From assembly GCA_965279515.1 (NCBI GenBank), contig CBDIID010000003.1:352001-416000 (forward strand): a DNA stretch of 64,000 bases. The letters run 5' to 3'. Each line of letters begins with the position of its first letter. The first letter of the stretch is position 1. A program made the translations under genes and the position numbers. This DNA is from Turneriella sp. Lineage in GTDB: Bacteria > Spirochaetota > Leptospiria > Turneriellales > Turneriellaceae. Under the pieces are notes generated by a model. It saw only the letters and a list, made by a program, of their open reading frames with translations, was not told where the DNA came from and made no database searches. Shown piece after piece: positions 46,901 to 58,155 of this stretch.

Positions 46901-47911
46901 TCAAATTACAAAATCCCCGTCAAACGTCTGCACATTGCGTATGCGGTAAAAAACCGCGAGCCCCAGGTTTAATCCCAGTGCCTTACCGGTTTCGTAGGGA
47001 ATCTCGGCTTCGACTACCTGCTGCGTCTTGTCGTCGATGAGCGTCACGCGTGTATAAGGCCCGAGCGGCTGCACGCCTTCGACCTTGGCGCTGAAGTCGG
47101 TCGGAAATTTTTGCACGATATCGACCTCGATTTCATGCGGCCGCACATAACCCTTTCCCTGGATACCTTCGATGCGGCCGTGGAACAGGTTGACATTGCC
47201 CATGAACTGGTAAACAAACGGCGTCTTCGGATTGCGGTAAACATCGTCGGGTGTACCGATCTGCTCGACCTGCCCGCGGTTCAGAATCACCACGCGGTCG
47301 GCGACTTCGAGCGCCTCTTCTTGATCATGCGTCACGAAGATACTCGTGATATGAATTTCATCGTGCAGCTTGCGCAGCCAGCGGCGCAGCTCTTTGCGCA
47401 CCTGTGCATCTAACGCACCAAAGGGTTCGTCGAGTAGCAGTACTTTAGGTTCTACGGCGAGCGCCCTCGCCAGCGCCACGCGCTGCCTTTGGCCGCCCGA
47501 CAGTTGGTGCGGATAGCGGTCTTCGAGATTCGCGAGCTGCACGAGGCCCAAAAGTTTCATCACGCGTTCGCGGATTTCTTCTTTGGAGGGGCGGAATTTT
47601 TTCTTGCGCACTTTGAGACCGAAGGCGACGTTATCAAAAATCGTCATGTGTTTGAAGAGCGCATAGTGCTGGAACACAAAGCCGACATTGCGTTCTTTCG
47701 CCGTCAGCGTCTGCACGTCGGTGCCGTCGAAGCGAATAATGCCGGATTCGGGAAATTCAAGACCTGCAATGATGCGCAAAAGCGTTGTCTTGCCGCAACC
47801 CGATGGCCCCAAGAGCGCCAAAAGCTCGCCGTGTCCCGCTTCGATCGAGACATTGTTCAGGGCTTTGAAATTCTTAAAGGTTTTACTGAGATTTTCTACT
47901 TGTATTTGCAT
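46901..47911 (-). CDS. cysA: Sulfate/thiosulfate ABC transporter ATPase
   Basis: [32 protein letters not shown] and [13 protein letters not shown] motifs. Confidence 0.95.
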
Positions 47912-47932
47912 GCGAAGTTTCCGTTTCTTTTT

Positions 47933-48019
47933 TAAACCGCAAAGTACGCTGAGGTACGCTGAGTATTTGCGGCAAACGCTGTGCCTTTCTTTGCGTCACT
48001 CTGCGCCCTCTGCGGTTAA
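47933..48019. repeat. REP-like inverted element overlapping cysW 3' end
   Basis: TAAACCGCAAAGTACGCTGAG ... CTTTGCGTCACTCTGCGCCCTCTGCGGTTAA imperfect inverted repeat. Confidence 0.6.
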
Positions 48020-48850
48020 TTTTTGTGACAGCTTTGCCTTGAGTTCAACCAGTGTTTTGACCATCAGCGTCGCGAGAGCCAGAAACGCCAAAAGCGACGC
48101 GACAGCAAACGCCGCCGTAAAATTATATTCATTGTAGAGGATTTCCACGTGCAGGGGCATGGTATTCGTTTCGCCGCGGATATGCCCCGAGACCACGGAG
48201 ACCGCGCCGAACTCACCCATCGCGCGCGCATTGCATAAAATTACGCCGTAAATGAGCCCCCATTTGATGTTAGGCAGGGTCACCATGAAAAACATCCGCA
48301 GCGGCGATGCGCCCAGCATCAGCGCCGCTTCTTCTTCACTCTTGCCCTGCTCTTCCATGAGCGGTATGAGTTCACGCGCCACAAAGGGAAATGTCACAAA
48401 GACGGTTGCGAGTACGATGCCCGGTATCGCAAAGATAATCTTGATACCGGCGCCAGAAAGTGCCCCGCCGAGCCAGCCCTGCAAACCGAAAATAAGCACA
48501 TAGATAAGCCCTGAAATCACCGGTGAAATCGCAAAGGGCAAATCGATGAGCGAGACGAGAAAACTCTTGCCCCAGAAATCAAATTTTGCCACGGCGTACG
48601 CGGCCACGACTCCAAACACGAGGTTCAGCGGCACCGAAATGCCCGCGGCAATCAATGTCAGTTTAATTGCCTCCCATGTTACCGGATCCGCGAGAGATTC
48701 GACATAATACCCCCAACCTTTGTTAAAAGCCTGTGTGAAAATTTCGTAAAGCGGCAAAACTAAAAGCAGCGTTAGAAATCCTACGGCGAAGCCGATGAAA
48801 GTAATTTTGAGCCAGAGTGGATCCTGAATTTGTGCGCTTGTCTTCTTCAT
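47996..48850 (-). CDS. cysW: Sulfate ABC transporter permease CysW
   Basis: DLPFAISPVISG, PFVARELIPLM and ARAMGEFGAVSVVSGHIRGET motifs. Confidence 0.95.
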   Translation of the reverse strand: MKKTSAQIQDPLWLKITFIGFAVGFLTLLLVLPLYEIFTQAFNKGWGYYVESLADPVTWEAIKLTLIAAGISVPLNLVFGVVAAYAVAKFDFWGKSFLVSLIDLPFAISPVISGLIYVLIFGLQGWLGGALSGAGIKIIFAIPGIVLATVFVTFPFVARELIPLMEEQGKSEEEAALMLGASPLRMFFMVTLPNIKWGLIYGVILCNARAMGEFGAVSVVSGHIRGETNTMPLHVEILYNEYNFTAAFAVASLLAFLALATLMVKTLVELKAKLSQKLTAEGAE

Positions 48851-49671
48851 GTAACCTTTCTCTTCTGGCGTATCTGCAAATAGTTCAGGATGAGGAGCAG
48901 CGCAAAGGAAATCATCAGCATCACAGCCGCCACCGCCGTCGCGCCCTGCACATTGTGCTGCTCGAGTTTGGTGATGATGATGAGCGGCGTGATTTCACTT
49001 TTGAACGGAATATTGCCAGCAATAAAGATCACGCTGCCGTACTCACCCAGCGCGCGGGAGAACGCCATGATCGTACCTGAAAACAGCGCGGGTAATAGCG
49101 ATGGTAAGATGACGCGGGTGATCGTCTGCCAGCGCGTTGCTCCCAAACTCGCCGCAGCCTCTTCGACTTCTTTTTCAAAGTCTTCTAGCACGGGCTGTAC
49201 CGAACGCACGACGAAAGGCAGACCGATAAAAGTCAGTGCAATTGTGATGCCGATGGGGTTATAGGCGGCCTTGATGCCAGCCTTCATGAGTGGCGCGCCT
49301 AAAATACCGTTCTCTGCATAGACGGTGGAAAGCGCGATACCGGCAACGGCTGTCGGCAATGCGAACGGGAGATCGACTAATGTGTCGAGCAGGCGTTTGC
49401 CCCAAAAAGTATACCGCGTCAGCACCCAGGCTATCACGAAACCGGCAAAGAGGTTGATCATCGCCGCGATAAATGCCGTCAAAAAACTCAAACGTAAGGA
49501 GATGAGGGTACGTTCTGAAAAGGCATGCTCGGCAAAATCAGCCCAGCCCAAAGAAAAACTCTTCGCAAACATCGCACCGAGTGGAATTAATACAATAACG
49601 GCGAGATAAATTACCGTGTAGGTAGAGGTTATCTTAAAACCAGGTAGGATGGATTTTTCGCGGAAAGTCAA
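48847..49671 (-). CDS. cysT: Sulfate ABC transporter permease CysT
   Basis: DLPFALPTAVAG, PFVVRSVQPVL and GEYGSVIFIAGNIP motifs; probable TTG start at 49671. Confidence 0.93.
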   Translation of the reverse strand: MTFREKSILPGFKITSTYTVIYLAVIVLIPLGAMFAKSFSLGWADFAEHAFSERTLISLRLSFLTAFIAAMINLFAGFVIAWVLTRYTFWGKRLLDTLVDLPFALPTAVAGIALSTVYAENGILGAPLMKAGIKAAYNPIGITIALTFIGLPFVVRSVQPVLEDFEKEVEEAAASLGATRWQTITRVILPSLLPALFSGTIMAFSRALGEYGSVIFIAGNIPFKSEITPLIIITKLEQHNVQGATAVAAVMLMISFALLLILNYLQIRQKRKVT

Positions 49672-49778
49672 ACCCCACCCCCTAACCCCCTCCCCATTAC
49701 ATGGAGAGGGGGAAAAAGAAGTTCCCCAAACCCCTCTCCACATCGTGGGGAGGGGTGGCCGTAGGCCGGGGTGGGGTT
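49671..49778. repeat. G/C-tract REP-like element between sbp and cysT
   Basis: Terminal IR AACCCCACCCC/GGGGTGGGGTT with two internal CCCCTC(C/T)CC..GGxGAGGGG hairpins. Confidence 0.7.
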
Positions 49779-50811
49779 AGCGACGATAGACCTGATCAAA
49801 CAGCCCTCCGTCGGCAAAATGTTCTTTGTTCGCTTTATCCCAGCCGCCGAAGGTCGCATCGACCGTGACGAGCCGTACCGGCTTCACGTGCGCATAGTGT
49901 TTGGCGATATCGGTCTTGCGGGGACGGAAAAAATTCTTGCCGGCCAGATTTTGCCCTGCGTCGGAATACAGGTATTGCAGGTAGGCGGCGGCGATTTCCT
50001 GATTGCCTTTTTTAATAGCGTTGCCTTCCATGAGGGCGACGCTCGGTTCGGCGAGAATGCTGAGCGATGGAATAACAATTTCAAACTGCCCGCCCAACTC
50101 CTTTACCGCGAGGTAGGCTTCGTTTTCCCAGGCAATCAGCACATCGCCGAGTTTGCGCTGCGTGAAGGTTGTCGTCGCACCGCGGGCACCGGCATCCAGC
50201 ACGGCCACGTTCTTATATAAAGCACGCAGAAATTCTTTTCCACGCGCAGCCGCGCTGCCGCCATCTTCCGGGTGCCCCGGAACTCCGCGCGGCCCAGTGC
50301 CTCGTGCACCGTGGGCATACGCCGCGAGATGGTTCCAACGCGCACCGCCCGAGGTTTTCGGGTTGGGTGTAATCACTGAAACGCCGGCTTTTATGAGGTC
50401 ATCCCAATCCTTAATATTTTTAGGATTTCCCTTACGAACCAAAAATACGATCGTTGAGGTATAGGGCGCACTGTTATCGGGCAGCCTCTTCTGCCAGTCG
50501 CTGGGTGCAATCTTCGCTTCGCGCGCAATGGCGTCGATATCTGAAGAGAGCGCCAGCGTGACAACGTCGGCAGCCAGACCGTCGATCACGGAACGCGCCT
50601 GTTTGCCGCTGCCGCCATGCGACATATGGAAACGTACTTCGTCTTGCGGGTGAGTTGTTTTCCAGTGTTTGAGGAATGCTTCATTATACTCGCGGTAGAA
50701 TTCGCGCGTGGGATCATAAGAGACGTTCATGAGCTCGCGCGTCGCCTTTTTACCGCCGCAGGCAGTCAGGGCAGCGATGAACAGAATAAACTTTAACGGA
50801 CTTTTTTTCAT
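49777..50811 (-). CDS. sbp: Sulfate-binding protein, lipoprotein form
   Basis: Lipobox [31 protein letters not shown] and NPKTSGGA motifs. Confidence 0.92.
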   Translation of the reverse strand: MKKSPLKFILFIAALTACGGKKATRELMNVSYDPTREFYREYNEAFLKHWKTTHPQDEVRFHMSHGGSGKQARSVIDGLAADVVTLALSSDIDAIAREAKIAPSDWQKRLPDNSAPYTSTIVFLVRKGNPKNIKDWDDLIKAGVSVITPNPKTSGGARWNHLAAYAHGARGTGPRGVPGHPEDGGSAAARGKEFLRALYKNVAVLDAGARGATTTFTQRKLGDVLIAWENEAYLAVKELGGQFEIVIPSLSILAEPSVALMEGNAIKKGNQEIAAAYLQYLYSDAGQNLAGKNFFRPRKTDIAKHYAHVKPVRLVTVDATFGGWDKANKEHFADGGLFDQVYRR

Positions 50812-50856
50812 TATAACGACCGACGAATTCGAGAATTCAGACACTCCGTCAATGAC

Positions 50857-51031
50857 GGTAACTTTGAGGGCATGCCGTCCCCGGTCTTAGCAAAACCGGG
50901 AGCAGCGAAGCGCTTTAGTCGCTGACCAAGAGGTCCACGACCTATTGGCAGTCGTTTGTCTTCAAACAACGCGAACCGTCTTCGGGTCTCCGCTTCGGAG
51001 GCTCCCGGTTTTGCCATGCCCTCAAATTACC
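50857..51031. repeat. ~175-bp long inverted-repeat element between the two sbp genes
   Basis: GGTAA.TTTGAGGGCATG..GCAAAACCGGGAGC pairs with GCTCCCGGTTTTGC-CATGCCCTCAAA-TTACC. Confidence 0.7.
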
Positions 51032-51037
51032 AGAGCA

Positions 51038-52036
51038 CTATTTCCGGTAGATCTGGTCGAAGGTGCCCCCGTCGGCAAAGTGTGTTTTTGCCGCGTTTTT
51101 CCATCCACCGAAAACACCGTCTACCGTAATCAGTTTGAGGTTCTTGAAGTGGTTGAAACGCGCCGCCGCCTTGGGGTTACGCGGGCGGTAATAGTGTTTC
51201 GCCGCGATATTCTGCCCCTCGGGTGATTCGAGATAGTCGAGGTAAGCTTTCGCGATTTCGGCATTCCCCTTGCGGTTCGCATTGACATCCACTACAGATA
51301 CCGACGGTTCTGCGAGGATACTGAAGGACGGAATCACCACATCGTACTGATCAGGGCCGAGCTCCTTAATCGCGAGAAAGGCCTCGTTTTCCCAGGCGAT
51401 ATAGACGTCGCCAATCTTGCGCTGCGTGAAGGTCGTCGTCGCGCCGCGCGCACCGGTATCGAGCACGGCGACGTTTTTATAGATCGCCGTCACGAATTCC
51501 TTCGGATCCTTTTTTTTATCCAGCGCGTAACCCCATGCCGCCAGGTAATTCCACTGCGCGCCGCCCGAGGTTTTTGGGTTCGGGGTAATGACCGACACGC
51601 CGGGCTTGCCCAGGTCGTCCCAGTCCTTAATCCCCTTAGGATTTCCCTTACGCACTAGAAACACAATCGTCGACGTATAGGGTGCGCTGTTGTTTGGCCG
51701 GCGCTTCTGCCAGTCTTCAGGCAAAAGTTTTGCTTTCTCGGCGATCACGCTGACGTCGTTCGCCAGGGCGAGTGTCACCACATCGGCGTCGAGGCCGTCG
51801 ACAACCGAACGGGCTTGTTTGCCGCTACCGCCATGCGATTGCCGGAACTTAACGTTATCCTGCGGATGCGTCGCTTTCCAGTGGCGGGCAAACGCCGCAT
51901 TAAATTCTCGGTAAAGTTCGCGTGTCGGGTCATACGAGACATTGAGCAGCTCGTAGTCTTTCGCCGCAACCTCGCCGCCGACAAGGGCGGTCAGGATGGT
52001 GGCGAGGTAAATAATTTTCAGATTTTTCACTTTCAT
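51038..52036 (-). CDS. sbp: Sulfate-binding protein, periplasmic form
   Basis: Type-I signal peptide; [23 protein letters not shown] and AWENEA motifs; SD GAAGGAG before ATG 52036. Confidence 0.93.
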
Positions 52037-52056
52037 CTCCTTCAGTATATTGGCAA

Positions 52057-53649
52057 TCAATCAAAAAGCAGGGCGGAAAGCTCGAGATACGCGAAATGCG
52101 AATCACCCGGGCGTTTGAATTTTTCGGTGTAGGCCCCTGCCTTGAAATAGGCGTAACCGATATTCACCTTCAGGTGTGGGAACGGATAGCGAATACGAAT
52201 GTTGTACTCTTCACCGAATTTGCTGTCGGTGTTGGCGTTGCCCGCAGCTGTGGCATTGCTCAGGATGCCGGCATTGTTCCAGCGATCTTTCGGGCTCGCT
52301 GCCCAATACCAGACATAAGCAGTATCGATCTTGAGTTTTTCGATCGGTTCAAACTCGAGAATAACCTTCGGTGTTTCGAGGTTTTCTAACTGGAAATAGT
52401 CGTTCGCGGACCAGGGCCTCGCGAACCCATAAAGCCTTTCGAAGCGGTTCTGTGTATTGTCGGTACGGTCAAGGTCGCCTGAAATGAAGGCATAGAAACC
52501 AGCAAGGCGGGGTTTCCACGAATGCTTGAAGGTGTAACCGACTTCTGCCGTGGTATAAAATGCATCCTGTTTGCGTTCGACGGCGTTAGCACCCAGCTGG
52601 TCTACACCAAATTGTTTGGTATAAGAGAAGTCATAGTCAAAGCCGGATTTACCAAGCACGGCGTATACACGACCACCCACGGTATGAATGTCTCTGAACG
52701 AACGCGCACCAGCGTCGCTTGTGGGATACCAATCCAGCCTGGCCGGCTGATTATCCTGGTTAAGACCGAAATAGTAAGGCTGAATCGTCACCCATTGCGA
52801 CCATTCACGCACATTAAGCACCGCGCCATAAAACCACTGCTGGCCGATGGGTTGATCAATTTTCTCAATCTCGCGGATTAATGGTTGAGCGCCAATCAGG
52901 TTCAGATCCCAGTTGTTTTCTTTTTTTCCGATGGAGATCCAACCACCCTGAAAGGTGTTCGTCGTGTTGCGCCATTCGTTGAGACCCACGAGACGGCGAT
53001 CGGTCAGCTCGAGCGCATAACGCCCGCCGCGCACCGTGAGTGGGCGATTGTAGCCAAAAAAGTTTTTAAAGTGTAACTCGGCGTAGGCCTGAATGGGCTC
53101 TAAATAATTGAAATCCCGTGTATCCGCCGCAGTTGCGATCGGTGTGCGGCGCGAATCCTGTACTTCACCAACCAACCGAAACCAATCAAATTCGAGTTTT
53201 AGGAATGCCCGCGTCTTGAACAGTACAGGGGTTTCCTGTATTGCGGGGTTACCGGTTGGCCCTTGAGGATTTACAGGGCTATTCGCCCGACGAAAGTCGT
53301 TTTGACGAATTTCACCGCGGGTGCGCTGTTCGATACCAAAGATGATCCAGTCGATGTTCTTAAAGACACCGATACCGGTTTCACTGAGTCGCTTCGCGTA
53401 AGCGGGTTGCGTGCTATCGATGGGTTCTGTACCATAACTCGGTGAACGGACATAATAGCTGTCCTTTACTTCTGTGGTTGCTGCCTTTTTATCGGCTTCG
53501 CTGACTTCCGGTGGAATGGACTCGTCGTCTTTTACGGCTTTCTCTGCCGCTTCTGCTGGTTTTGCCTTCTTCGGCGCCGCAAATAACGGGCTTGCAAAGA
53601 CCGCTCCTGCGACAGCGAAGAAGAAAACTTTCTTAATAATCGTTTTCAT
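52057..53649 (-). CDS. Outer-membrane beta-barrel, alginate-export (AlgE-like) family
   Basis: Signal peptide; [25 protein letters not shown] and SGDLD motifs; SD GGGAG; 4-nt spacing-level coupling with sbp. Confidence 0.8.
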
Positions 53650-53774
53650 TTTTTATCTCCCTTTGCACACGAGGTGCATGGAATGCGGCGCACATGGATG
53701 TGCATTGCCGCATTCTTAGTTTTAATCCCCGCTATCTAAACAAAACTTTGTTTCGCTTCAGATGCGCAGGGATA

Positions 53775-53939
53775 TCACCTTCTTATGTGCAGAAGGGGAT
53801 AGCCGCGGGCACCCTGGCAACAGGATGTTGCGGGGGCTGCGGCGCACCAGCGGCGTTTGGAACAAACGCCTGTGGTGCAAGCCGCGGCCTCGCGCGCGCG
53901 ACAACAGCAACAACAGGAGTTTTTCACGAAATTTTTCAT
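53775..53939 (-). CDS. Cys-rich putative leader peptide (54 aa, 10 Cys including CCCCC)
   Basis: MKNFVKNSCCCCCRAREAAACTTGVCSKRRWCAAAPATSCCQGARGYPLLHIRR*, in the intergenic leader of the sulfate-uptake operon. Confidence 0.65.
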   Translation of the reverse strand: MKNFVKNSCCCCCRAREAAACTTGVCSKRRWCAAAPATSCCQGARGYPLLHIRR

Positions 53940-53973
53940 AGTCAATGATTCGCTGTCAGAATCTCCGCCATGA

Positions 53974-54882
53974 TTAAAAGAGACCTTCGATCGAGAGATA
54001 ACGTTCACCCGTATCGTAGTTGAACGTGAGAATGCGCGCGCCTTTTTTGAGTTCGGGAAGTTTTTTCGCCACCGCGGCGAGCGACGCACCGCTGGAGATA
54101 CCACCGAAAAGCGCCTCTTCGCGCGCAGCGCGTTTGGCATATTCAAACGCTTCTTCTTTCGTGACCTGGATCACGCCGGTGAGAAGTTCTTTTTTCAGGT
54201 TCTTCGGGATAAAACCCGCGCCGATACCCTGGATTGGGTGCGGAGCCGGATTGCCGCCGGAAATTACCGGAGACGCTGCAGGTTCAACCGCATAGACTTC
54301 GAGATTAGGCCATTTTTCGCGTAGCGTTTGCGCGAGTGCCGTGATATGCCCGCCGGTACCGACGCCGGTGATGACGACATCTATACCTTCGGGGAAATCG
54401 CGGAGTACTTCTTGCGCGGTAAATTTAGTGTGCGCGGCGATATTGGCTTCGTTCTCGAACTGCTGTGGGATCCACGAGTTTGGGGTTTGCGCCGAAAGTT
54501 CGTTCGCGCGTTCGATCGCACCCTTCATGCCTTTTTCACGCGGCGTAAGATCGAATGTTGCCCCATATGCAGCCATAACTGCGCGGCGCTCGACCGACAT
54601 GCTCTCGGGCATAACAAGAATGAGTTTATATTTTTTCGCAGCGGCGACGAGGGCAAGGCCAATACCGGTGTTACCCGATGTCGGTTCGATGATGACACTG
54701 CCCGGCTTCAGTATACCGCGGCGTTCTGCGTCTTCGACCATCGATAACGCGATACGGTCTTTAATACTGCCGCCCGGATTCTGGCGTTCCAGTTTTACCC
54801 AAACTTCGGCGTCGCCGAACAGGTGCTTGATACGTAAATGCGGCGTATTGCCGATTGCTTCGAGAATGCTATGTATCTTCAT
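53974..54882 (-). CDS. cysK: Cysteine synthase A
   Basis: [43 protein letters not shown] and DTGERYLS motifs; start 54882 (SD AAGGAG). Confidence 0.96.
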
Positions 54883-54962
54883 AAATAACTCCTTAATTTG
54901 AATTAACCGGGTGTTTTTTCGAAGCCCCGGTGCTTCCGGGGCAATCCGGGAGTGCTCCCGAA

Positions 54963-55076
54963 TTATCCCTGAAGCGCCGAACAGCCAAGGAAACACGATG
55001 TGTCCGGGCCTGCGCAGCACGCAGAGATGCGACAGCAGCGTGACATTGAACTAAAATCTGCTATACCGAACGTCAT
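54963..55076 (-). CDS. Cys-rich putative leader peptide (37 aa, 6 Cys) upstream of cysK
   Basis: Manual translation [37 protein letters not shown]; alternative start ATG 55046; below the ORF-track length cutoff. Confidence 0.65.
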
Positions 55077-55085
55077 TCTGCGCGG

Positions 55086-55115
55086 AAGATACTCAGGCGA
55101 CCGACACTACGTCAA
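55086..55115 (-). promoter_or_regulatory. Sigma-70-like promoter for the leader-cysK transcript
   Basis: TTGACG-N18-TATCTT on the minus strand, ending 9 nt upstream of the leader ATG. Confidence 0.55.
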
Positions 55116-55134
55116 CAAAAACAGACAAACATCC

Positions 55135-55752
55135 ATGAAAACGAACAAGAAAAAAAAGCCCGAACCTCCCGCTCCGGCGACCAGCGGAGAAAACCTCACA
55201 GGGGTAGTCGCAGAAAACGTTAAACGACTGCGCAGTGACATGGATTTATCGCTCGATAAACTCGCAGGACTCTCCGGTGTTTCAAAAGCAATGCTGAGCC
55301 AGATCGAACAGGCTCGCAGCGCCCCCTCGATCAATGTGCTCTGGAAGATTGCCCGTGCGCTCGATGTGCCTTTTGCGGCACTAATCTCAAAGCGCACGGA
55401 TTCCCAGCTGCAGGTTGTGCGCAAAAGTGAAATGAAAGTGCTTTCATCACAGAAGGGAAATTTCCAGTCGAAGGCCCTGTTTCCGCTCGACATAGCCCGG
55501 CGCGTTGAATTCTACGAACTGCTGCTCAAGGCTGGCTGCGTCGAGCGCGCTGTGCCCCACCCCGCCGGTACGGCAGAGAATATCGTTGTGTCTGAGGGCG
55601 AGCTGGAGATTGAAATCGGCGGACAGAGAACTTTATTAAAAGAGGGCGACTCCATTTACTTCGTGGCCGACGTGCCGCATATTTACCGCAGCATCGGATC
55701 CAAAGACACACGCGCCTATCTCGTGATGACATACGCAGAAAAGCGCGTGTAA
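55135..55752 (+). CDS. XRE-family HTH + cupin transcriptional regulator (SutR/YdcN-like)
   Basis: LSLDKLAGLSGVSKAMLSQIE..PSINVLWKIA HTH; cupin HPAGTAE and GDSIYFVADVPHIY; start 55135. Confidence 0.88.
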   Translation: MKTNKKKKPEPPAPATSGENLTGVVAENVKRLRSDMDLSLDKLAGLSGVSKAMLSQIEQARSAPSINVLWKIARALDVPFAALISKRTDSQLQVVRKSEMKVLSSQKGNFQSKALFPLDIARRVEFYELLLKAGCVERAVPHPAGTAENIVVSEGELEIEIGGQRTLLKEGDSIYFVADVPHIYRSIGSKDTRAYLVMTYAEKRV

Positions 55753-55801
55753 GCAATTTTCTGTTCAGCCGGTCTCTTTGCCCGTATTCACCGCTCACTA
55801 A

Positions 55802-57130
<1,329 letters not shown>

Positions 57131-57183
57131 TTGAATCGCCCGCGGGGAGATATCCCCGTGGGCCGATCTAAGCTGCCGGCAAA

Positions 57184-57594
57184 TCAGCTGGCGCGCTTCT
57201 CTTCTAACCACGCATAGACGTAAGTTCCCAGGAAGATACCCAGCACAATAAACGCGCCTGAGTGGAGTCCATAACCCAGAATTGCGAGCGCGGGGCCGGG
57301 GCATGCGCCTGTTAAGGCCCAGCCTGCTCCCGAAATCAGTCCACCAACCACGTGATTTTTGGACAGTTTCTCCACATTCCACTCGGTTTCGCCGCCCAAA
57401 AGCGGCTGGCGCCTGAGTTTTTTCCAGAGCTGTACGCCGATAAACGAAACCGGCACGGCAACGCCCAGAACTCCGTACATATGCCATGACTTGAGAAGAA
57501 ACATGTCGCGGATCACATCATAACTCGACACGCCTGCGCGGATGAGTATGTAGCCGAACGCAGTACCCAGCACCAGGAAAACAATGCGCAACAT
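57184..57594 (-). CDS. YeeE/YedE-family sulfur-compound transporter half (DUF6691-like)
   Basis: GGLISGAGWALTGACPGPAL motif; TM helices. Confidence 0.85.
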   Translation of the reverse strand: MLRIVFLVLGTAFGYILIRAGVSSYDVIRDMFLLKSWHMYGVLGVAVPVSFIGVQLWKKLRRQPLLGGETEWNVEKLSKNHVVGGLISGAGWALTGACPGPALAILGYGLHSGAFIVLGIFLGTYVYAWLEEKRAS

Positions 57595-58092
57595 CTATTT
57601 TACTCCCGAGATGAATGAAATGAGAATGGTGACAATCACACCCGCCACGAGAAAACCTCCCGTCGCTACAAAACTTGCCAGCGAGCCCTTCGAAAGACCT
57701 GCAATGGAATTACCTGATGTACAACCCTTTGCAAGCCTTGCGCCATAACCCCAGAGAAATCCCCCTGTGATCAGCACAGCTGCCTTCACACCAAGACTTG
57801 TCCCCCAAATATCATTGAACCGGCCAAGGTCCCATGTCGGATGCCATCCCGTTGTGGTTAAAGCGGCGATAGCGCCACCAGCCACTAACCCGACTGTAAA
57901 GAATGTACGAAAACCGAAGGCGCCGCCGAGATCGGGCCTGGAAAAATATTTGAGGCGCGAAAAAATTCCGCAGACCGTGGCATAACCGCGGGTCACCGAG
58001 AGAAATTTTCCTGTGGATATAACTAATAAAATCGAAACTGTGGCAATGGCAAGTCCACCCAACCAAAACGGCCAAATATATGCAGAGGTCAT
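57595..58092 (-). CDS. YeeE/YedE-family sulfur-compound transporter half
   Basis: GGFLWGYGARLAKGCTSGNSIAG motif; start 58092 with SD GGAGG. Confidence 0.87.
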   Translation of the reverse strand: MTSAYIWPFWLGGLAIATVSILLVISTGKFLSVTRGYATVCGIFSRLKYFSRPDLGGAFGFRTFFTVGLVAGGAIAALTTTGWHPTWDLGRFNDIWGTSLGVKAAVLITGGFLWGYGARLAKGCTSGNSIAGLSKGSLASFVATGGFLVAGVIVTILISFISGVK

Positions 58093-58155
58093 GGGGGCAA
58101 CCTCCCGGAGGTTGCTCACGAGCGTAAAGTCAAACAGCTGTCGCACGCCCGGGGG

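Follow-up and report, generated by a model that had tools for sequence, protein, structure and literature searches.

In a spirochete of the genus Turneriella, the cysteine synthase gene cysK lies behind a short, Cys-rich upstream open reading frame (uORF) that, on the evidence of comparison among relatives and RNA folding, probably acts as a functional Cys sensor coupled to an RNA switch. The full mechanism, in which sensor and switch would work through a Rho-type output ahead of cysK, we give an even chance. Leader-peptide attenuation by Cys codons is a known kind of regulation; what is likely new here is its occurrence in a spirochete, a classical switch logic, and an off-hairpin that carries no terminator tail.

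A Cys-rich uORF in a sulfur gene cluster

The window, by which we mean the whole 64,000-nucleotide stretch of DNA analysed, belongs to a genome that we call G000; related genomes carry similar handles, and coordinates are those of the window unless a contig is named. Its relevant features are as follows.

55135..55752, plus strand: divergent regulator with XRE (HTH_3, PF01381) and cupin (PF07883) domains
55110..55115, minus strand: -35 hexamer TTGACG of the predicted promoter of cysK-porin-sbp-cysTWA; TTGAC is kept in 6/6 aligned leaders
55086..55091, minus strand: -10-like hexamer TATCTT, after an 18-nt spacer from TTGACG and 9 nt from the uORF ATG at 55076
55055..55072, no strand assigned: operator-like 16-18-bp palindrome over uORF codons 2-8, with 1 mismatch to consensus; putative XRE-cupin binding site
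54963..55076, minus strand: uORF of 37 codons, Cys at codons 14, 15, 20, 21, 28 and 32, no Shine-Dalgarno (SD) sequence; homologous uORFs in G001, G006, G002, G009 and G011
55010..55028, minus strand: segment 1, predicted 5' arm of protector hairpin 1:2, codons 17-23 including Cys20-21, pairing with about 54984-54965
54926..54981, minus strand: long hairpin 2:3, antiterminator-like, extending across the final codons of the uORF and its stop codon; 25 pairs, with 89.6% of cells paired
54924..54942, minus strand: hairpin 3:4, GCCCCGG-5 nt-CCGGGGC, terminator- or pause-like, no U tract; 7-bp stem invariant in 5/5
54906..54931, minus strand: hairpin 4:5, ACCGGG/CCCGGU, predicted only together with 2:3
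54889..54894, minus strand: cysK SD, AAGGAG
53974..54882, minus strand: cysK, cysteine synthase A (TIGR01139, 386 bits against a cut-off of 351)
53775..53939, minus strand: second uORF rich in Cys (54 aa, with CCCCC and CC), located after cysK and before the porin gene; counterparts in G001, G003, G005, G006, G007 and G012
46901..53649, minus strand: downstream sulfate-uptake genes, encoding an alginate-export-family porin, two sulfate-binding proteins, and cysT, cysW and cysA

The regulator is followed by an O-acetylhomoserine sulfhydrylase gene (TIGR01326), beyond which lies a split pair of YeeE/YedE-type sulfur-transport genes (57184-58146, minus strand) that stands beside the regulator in several relatives. 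The nearest named cysK in a GTDB scan is 87% identical and belongs to a Turneriella sp.; G000 also has a second, unlinked cysK (C3:4171930-4172838), 84% identical, with neither uORF nor operator.

A preliminary description of this DNA had reported a 37-aa ORF at 55076-54963 with six Cys residues, two CC pairs and no SD, and the element TTGACG-N18-TATCTT ending 9 nt before its ATG. Both are present on the minus strand as described. The stop codon occupies 54965-54963 (minus strand), and the Cys codons read, in order, TGC TGT TGC TGC TGT TGT, so that both Cys codons are used. The ORF is missing from the program-made ORF track, probably since GTG 55000 extends the opposite-strand regulator ORF across it; the regulator's open frame is 213-221 aa in G003, G008, G006 and G001 versus 259 aa here. 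A second candidate start, ATG 55046, is not conserved (it is CTG in G006), which leaves 55076 as the likely start.

At least six Cys occurred in 0.34% of 20,000 dinucleotide shuffles of the uORF, and the other two frames of the region encode one Cys each. Among 73 promoter-led intergenic short ORFs of G000, the uORF has the highest Cys fraction, with 5/37 in second place. A loose filter for Cys richness was passed by 24 of 4,990 small ORFs in this genome. Cys-rich small ORFs are thus not rare as such, and the case for this one rests on its context and conservation. A genome-wide search for more Cys uORFs, which took the first ATG only and so passed over the uORF before the porin gene, returned no convincing extra locus. 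Two short Cys-rich intergenic ORFs, at C3:2585234-2585296 (plus strand, 20 aa) and C3:3191542-3191489 (minus strand, 17 aa), precede genes with no obvious sulfur role and are probably due to chance.

Promoter spacing predicts a nearly leaderless uORF

The position of TATCTT is inferred from spacing because the -10 consensus of this genome is weak. In G000, TTGAC stands most often 33-35 nt before the ATG of a long gene, a sharp peak (81, 89 and 38 genes at offsets 33, 34 and 35, against a background of about 7, with control motifs flat) that has a shoulder at 36-41 nt. Of the 208 promoters in the peak, only 11 are followed by an SD-like motif, and judging from these sequences leaderless genes appear to be common in G000. 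Genome-wide, the roughly 200 genes with TTGAC 33-35 nt before the ATG have a very weak -10 consensus and almost no SD. About 440 leaderless-type genes, with UTRs under 10 nt, are given for Leptospira interrogans in the available text of one study (PMC5243855).

The uORF ATG at 55076 lies 39 nt after TTGACG. Set against the genome peak of 33-35 nt, this offset predicts a leader of 4-6 nt, that is, a transcription start at about 55080-55082. The homologous uORFs of G002, G009 and G011 start with GTG exactly at offset 34. Near-leaderless initiation, as proposed earlier for this ORF, therefore fits the promoter spacing of the genome.

Distribution of the uORF in the genus and beyond

The XRE-cupin regulator is encoded in all 14 genomes of the genus, and a Cys-rich uORF is found at the divergent promoter in six. 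Three of these uORFs stand before cysK (G000, G006 and G001; offsets 39, 39 and 38; lengths 37, 27 and 24 aa). The other three, each of 30 aa, stand before the porin gene at loci that have no cysK (G002, G009 and G011, with CCC, CCC and CC). Runs of CC, CCC or CCCC are kept among the homologs, and the rest of the peptide (24-37 aa) is divergent. G001, whose cysK is 97% identical, has the uORF and no RNA module of the type described below. The remaining eight genomes of the genus have no such uORF: six at cysK (G003, G004, G005, G007, G010 and G012), one at sbp (G008), and G013, in which cysK is unlinked from the regulator. In genomes lacking the uORF, the promoter, palindrome and SD lie directly ahead of cysK. 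The tree of the XRE regulator has 7 of its 13 inner branches open, so gain versus loss of the uORF is not decided by it.

The preliminary description had suggested comparing cysK upstream regions across Leptospiraceae; none of the seven same-class genomes of family f8 (probably Leptospiraceae) has such a uORF before cysK. Within the family of Turneriella, two genomes of other genera (G016 and G017) have a uORF that ends in a Cys run before cysK, at offset 38 and without operator or module; three others (G018, G015 and G019) have no such uORF. The uORFs of G016 (L014) and G017 (L015) end directly in CCCCCC or CSCCC and are followed by pyrimidine-rich spacers. Metagenome and GTDB scans of cysK, covering 160 loci, gave no further homolog of the uORF leader. 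Cys-rich ORFs in cysK upstream regions numbered 15 sense versus 7 antisense (182/190 regions).

With six Cys in 37 residues and two CC pairs, the peptide might itself be functional, for example as a metallothionein-like buffer of thiols or metals. We consider this very improbable. Pfam has no family for it or for the uORF between cysK and the porin gene, and its length, Cys number (2-6) and Cys spacing are not conserved among homologs, whereas the RNA pairing is.

A conserved module of mutually exclusive hairpins

Two GC hairpins had been placed after the uORF stop in the preliminary description, CGGGAG-ca-CTCCCG and GCCCCGG-aagca-CCGGGGC. Both sequences are present, and the second corresponds to hairpin 3:4, but the first is not a separate hairpin: CGGGAG-ca-CTCCCG cannot close a 2-nt loop. 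Instead, CGGGA/UCCCG (loop GCAC) is the apex of a much longer hairpin (54981-54926), which starts within the uORF and cannot coexist with the GCCCCGG hairpin. By folding and alignment, mutually exclusive 2:3 and 3:4 hairpins are common to all five homologs of the module.

Searched as a pattern, the 3' module has a single match per genome in 5 of 151 genomes of the class (G000, G002, G006, G009 and G011), always behind the uORF; a reversed control pattern has no match in the genomes listed. In three of the five (G002, G009 and G011), the module precedes the porin gene rather than cysK. Across the five sequences, 7 of the 25 pairs of hairpin 2:3 are changed on both sides. The covariation of 2:3 is 0.312, against 0.194 +/- 0.032 for shuffled alignments and at most 0.124 for slid controls, and is reached in 0 of 500 shuffles, counts that overstate the case since the five homologs amount to about three lineages. 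RNAalifold predicts the same 2:3 helix from the five-sequence alignment. Two of the doubly changed pairs involve the loop of 3:4, which differs between lineages; the 3:4 stem itself never varies and so gains no support from covariation.

An origin of the hairpins as repeats or REP elements was rejected: the leader is single-copy, and the nearest thing to a second copy, a partial match of 39 nt at 85%, falls within an unrelated gene. Over positions 52000-57500, Rfam gave two weak matches (E 2.0 and 2.4), neither in the leader, and no leader or riboswitch family.

Ribosome position is predicted to set the switch

We folded the nascent RNA to the end of the 3:4 arm while masking RNA to 9 or 12 nt beyond each A-site codon. 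A ribosome modelled in this way gives a trp-like 1:2/2:3/3:4 logic in all five homologs. The probability of 3:4 in nascent RNA is about 1 just before and just after the Cys block and near 0 within an interval spanning codons 14-30 in G000, 16-19 in G002 and G009, 15-19 in G011 and 16-20 in G006. The interval of G000 is longer and matches an insertion bearing extra Cys codons. It contains five of the six Cys codons in G000 and all of those in G002 (3/3), G009 (3/3) and G011 (2/2); in G006, the count is 2/5, or 3/5 with the longer footprint. The overlap between Cys codons and interval is not significant for G000 alone (P=0.078), has P=0.03-0.22 in G006, and P=0.009-0.023 in G002, G009 and G011, which are related to one another. 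In G002 and G009, 3:4 is also lost with the ribosome at some early codons that do not encode Cys (2-5 and 7 or 8). In these predictions for the five homologs, a ribosome stalled at the Cys codons would sit on segment 1, and segment 2 would remain available for pairing.

Without a ribosome, the probability of 3:4 is 1.00 in G000, 1.00 in G006, 0.53 in G002, 0.89 in G009 and 0.95 in G011. When the RNA before segment 2 was shuffled, 3:4 was kept in only 4, 8, 3, 1 and 6 of 60 sequences from G000, G006, G002, G009 and G011, respectively. The default state thus appears to be 3:4 because segment 2 is hidden by protector hairpin 1:2, with the Cys codons in or next to its 5' arm. With 2:3 enforced, 4:5 has a probability of 0.97-1.00 in all five homologs, as the freed 3:4 arm pairs with a downstream C-run. 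When the full-length RNA is folded, 3:4 dominates in G002 and G009 whatever the ribosome does, and in G006 it prevails at the first Cys codons, so the switch model needs a decision made during transcription.

From these predictions we propose the following sequence of events. Transcription would start 4-6 nt before the uORF ATG, and a ribosome would load without an SD, as the spacing implies. When Cys-tRNA is scarce, the ribosome would wait on Cys14/15, Cys20/21 or Cys28 and cover segment 1; segment 2 would then pair with segments 3-4 (long 2:3 plus 4:5), 3:4 would be blocked, and polymerase would read on into cysK, the porin gene and sbp-cysTWA. When Cys is plentiful, the ribosome would reach the stop and cover segment 2, and folding in five genomes predicts that 3:4 then forms. 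If no ribosome is present, folding in the same five predicts that 1:2 hides segment 2 and 3:4 again forms. In the least supported step of the scheme, hairpin 3:4 would serve premature termination by Rho, either by causing a pause or by forming the 3' end. Feedback on cysK by Cys-tRNA through the uORF had been suggested in the preliminary description. Comparison supports that suggestion, through the retained Cys runs, the covarying switch and the predicted interval without 3:4, which covers the Cys codons.

Output of the switch

No U tract follows 3:4 in any of the five homologs, a terminator scan has no match at the leader, and an intrinsic terminator is ruled out by the missing tract. Hairpin 3:4 is most likely a pause or 3'-end hairpin for Rho. 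The genome has rho (TIGR00767, above cut-off), and U-tailed terminators are scarce in it: in a crude count that includes repeats, 1,187 gene ends yielded 256 GC hairpins, only 24 of them with at least five T in 8 nt. Rho-generated 3' ends carry stem-loops without U tracts, according to the available portion of one study (PMC13613805), and folds set by uORFs control Rho at Salmonella mgtA/mgtL, corA/corL and mgtC/mgtM and at E. coli tnaC, according to the available portion of another (PMC12360218). Taken together, the presence of rho, the scarcity of U-tailed hairpins, the U-less Rho ends and the mgtA/corA precedent favour Rho-assisted premature termination. The leader is short for Rho loading, and after 3:4 it has no rut-like bias of C over G (C/G 6/6 in G000), only the short C-run released from 4:5. 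Given the sensor and the switch, a Rho-assisted or pause-type output seems to us somewhat better than an even bet.

The same sensor and switch could instead control translation. Segment 5, the C-run, once freed from 4:5, would pair with the SD of the first gene, and loss of mRNA would be a matter of polarity. Hairpin 4:5 forms in the on state in 5/5 homologs. Segment 5 is an anti-SD in G002, G009 and G011, where it pairs with the SD region. In these three, the 3:4 state raises the cost of opening the 30S footprint, taken with 15 nt of coding sequence, by 3.0 kcal/mol in G002, 6.1 in G009 and 1.4 in G011. In G009, the SD itself is 3.4-3.7 kcal/mol harder to open in that state, which in this model points to translation control in that genome; in G002, a switch shows up for the wider 30S footprint and not otherwise. 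In G016 and G017, a ribosome stalled on the terminal Cys run makes the SD easier to open by about 2-3 kcal/mol, and SD occlusion is the tested output in mycobacteria, as far as the available text of that preprint goes (bioRxiv 10.1101/834739). Against a translational output, the energies of SD opening in the two states lie within 1 kcal/mol of each other in G000 and in G006, and the sign of the change in G011 depends on window length. In G000, opening the cysK SD costs 2.9-4.1 kcal/mol in both states, so no switch is predicted, and neither ribosome masks nor enforced helices gave SD occlusion there. G006 keeps the module though a large insertion, an inserted hairpin, shifts its cysK SD about 55 nt away. 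We regard control of translation as the less likely output overall, though a serious rival. The palindromic insertion of G006 (L003), between the module and the cysK ATG, has captured the original SD and is followed by another SD.

The switch might also set mRNA decay or processing, with 3:4 versus 2:3 exposing or hiding a nuclease site or a protecting end. That G000 has no U tract, rut bias or SD switch would be in keeping with such a role. No positive evidence speaks for it, however, and the switch is clearest at the length of the nascent transcript, which suits a transcription decision. We judge decay or processing improbable and retain Rho-assisted or pause-type termination as the preferred output.

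An operator-like palindrome within the uORF

The preliminary description had missed a probable repressor operator inside the uORF. Its consensus form, drawn from the loci compared here, is GTYYRNTAWANYRRAC. Near the cysK promoter, 10/10 loci of the genus that are linked or once were have the palindrome with 0-1 mismatches; G018 and all seven family-f8 genomes have it with 2. At three second cysK copies, and in G016 and G017, it is absent (at least 4 mismatches). In G000 it is probably the site of the divergent XRE-cupin repressor, which would bring a further control of initiation. Inside the uORF, a plus-strand site of sigma-70-like form (55029-55057) overlaps the same palindrome; it could serve the regulator gene, facing the cysK promoter.

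In all five family-f8 genomes tested, relatives of the regulator are 46-48% identical; no NCBIfam equivalog matches the regulator above cut-off. E. coli SutR/YdcN and PuuR are XRE-cupin proteins of the same HTH_3 plus cupin architecture, divergent from sulfur genes, and SutR has a role in sulfur use. A matrix trained without G000, G001 and G006 ranks the operator site 15th on the 4.84-Mb main contig, with sbp2 and a sulfite-reductase gene at ranks 4 and 10; most of the top 40 matches are not at recognisable sulfur genes. Further copies of the palindrome lie at 50805-50822, at the start of sbp2, and at C3:541994 of G000, before the sulfite-reductase gene. By eye, it also precedes the porin genes of family f8 in L234, L236, L238 and L239. 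A class-wide sulfur regulon is possible on these sequences.

These observations raise the alternative that the uORF is not a sensor at all and that the XRE-cupin repressor alone regulates the locus, the ORF and hairpins serving mRNA stability or being remnants. Since the palindrome covers codons 2-8, the N-terminal similarity of the G000, G006 and G001 uORFs may reflect the operator and not the peptide. That genomes without the uORF place promoter, palindrome and SD directly before cysK, and that Cys-rich small ORFs arise by chance at the frequency given above, would also fit regulation by the repressor alone. But G002, G009 and G011 have the palindrome in the promoter and not within the uORF, and uORF, Cys run and module are still present. 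Moreover, a repressor acting alone leaves the covariation of 2:3 and the Cys-centred switch interval unexplained. We therefore hold it to be improbable and favour a Cys-sensing uORF to which the repressor would add a second layer of control.

Relation to known attenuators

The closest tested parallel is in mycobacteria. In the available text of the preprint that describes them (bioRxiv 10.1101/834739), leaderless polycysteine sORFs include Ms5788A and Rv2334A, the latter before cysK1-cysE, and form a 'Cys ribulon'; the poly-Cys tract of Ms5788A pairs with the SD, a stall frees the SD, and two consecutive Cys are reported to be sufficient. To the extent that this text describes that type, it and the Turneriella locus share a uORF that is leaderless or, in Turneriella, predicted to be nearly so, consecutive Cys codons, a place before cysteine or sulfur genes, and more than one copy per genome. 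In Turneriella, by contrast, the Cys codons lie in the middle of the ORF and are predicted to pair with the 3' end of the uORF itself rather than with the SD. The pairing partners lie upstream of the SD in a four-segment switch, no SD switch is predicted in G000, the host is a spirochete, and the uORF overlaps an operator-like site. The mycobacterial analogy drawn in the preliminary description thus stands for the sensor; it fails for the output, as folding gives no SD pairing here. The mycobacterial type seems better matched by the leaders of G016 and G017, in which the Cys run ends the uORF.

With attenuators of the trpL/hisL type, to which M. tuberculosis ilvB1 belongs according to the available text of a recent paper (PMC13236596), the leader shares cognate codons in a uORF, predicted 1:2, 2:3 and 3:4 pairings, and 3:4 as the default and at-stop state. 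It differs in a 3:4 without U tract in 5/5 homologs, a uORF without SD, and an extra 4:5 hairpin in the on state. As far as the available text describes them, Rho-dependent uORF attenuators likewise have no intrinsic terminator, and in both cases ribosome position would choose the leader fold; unlike the mgtA/corA type, the signal here would be Cys-tRNA, there is no rut-like C bias, and Rho dependence is only proposed. Available portions of two other papers mention predicted cys leaders in actinobacteria, with Rho proposed (PMC1262725), and a predicted Cys example, uORFC-8-2, before cysS in Rhodobacterales (PMC8632094).

No Cys attenuator in Turneriella, Leptospira or other spirochetes was found in the literature searched, which lay mostly outside subscription journals. 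A comparative survey of attenuators across phyla reportedly dates from 2010. Within the same literature, Cys attenuation by uORFs has been tested only in mycobacteria, with SD occlusion as the output. We tentatively suggest, as a possibility that falls short of an even chance, that the Turneriella leaders are the first family of ribosome-mediated amino-acid attenuators in spirochetes, combining a leaderless Cys sensor, a trp-like switch, a U-less Rho or pause off-hairpin, an operator within codons, a second Cys attenuator, and portability between cysK and the porin gene.

The natural variants of the module (uORF present or absent, operator inside or outside the uORF, cysK or porin gene downstream) make a compact test of how a U-less hairpin switches an operon off, and they bear on what the abundant leaderless transcripts of Leptospirae do. 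The locus also predicts a class-wide sulfur operator together with a candidate regulator. Sulfate assimilation matters for superoxide tolerance in Leptospira, according to the available part of one report (PMC12345160).

A second Cys uORF in tandem

A Cys uORF lies in the gap between cysK and the porin gene at all seven loci with a readable gap, including that of G006, whose contig ends before the porin gene, and G000, G001 and G006 therefore have two Cys uORFs in tandem. The second uORF is, from its sequence, a candidate tandem attenuator, with RNA motifs unlike those of the first. The uORFs of this gap (in the window and in L036, L038, L039, L043, L048 and L003) are 27-58 aa long and have their own conserved motifs around the stop; in G003, an apparent frameshift separates the Cys run from the conserved end.

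Farther afield, Cys-run uORFs followed by canonical U-tailed terminators precede cysK at seven loci, four of them Bacteroidota records (L171, L176, L185 and L192) and three metagenome loci (L054, L055 and L094). By sequence, the leaders of these distant bacteria look like classical Cys transcription attenuators.
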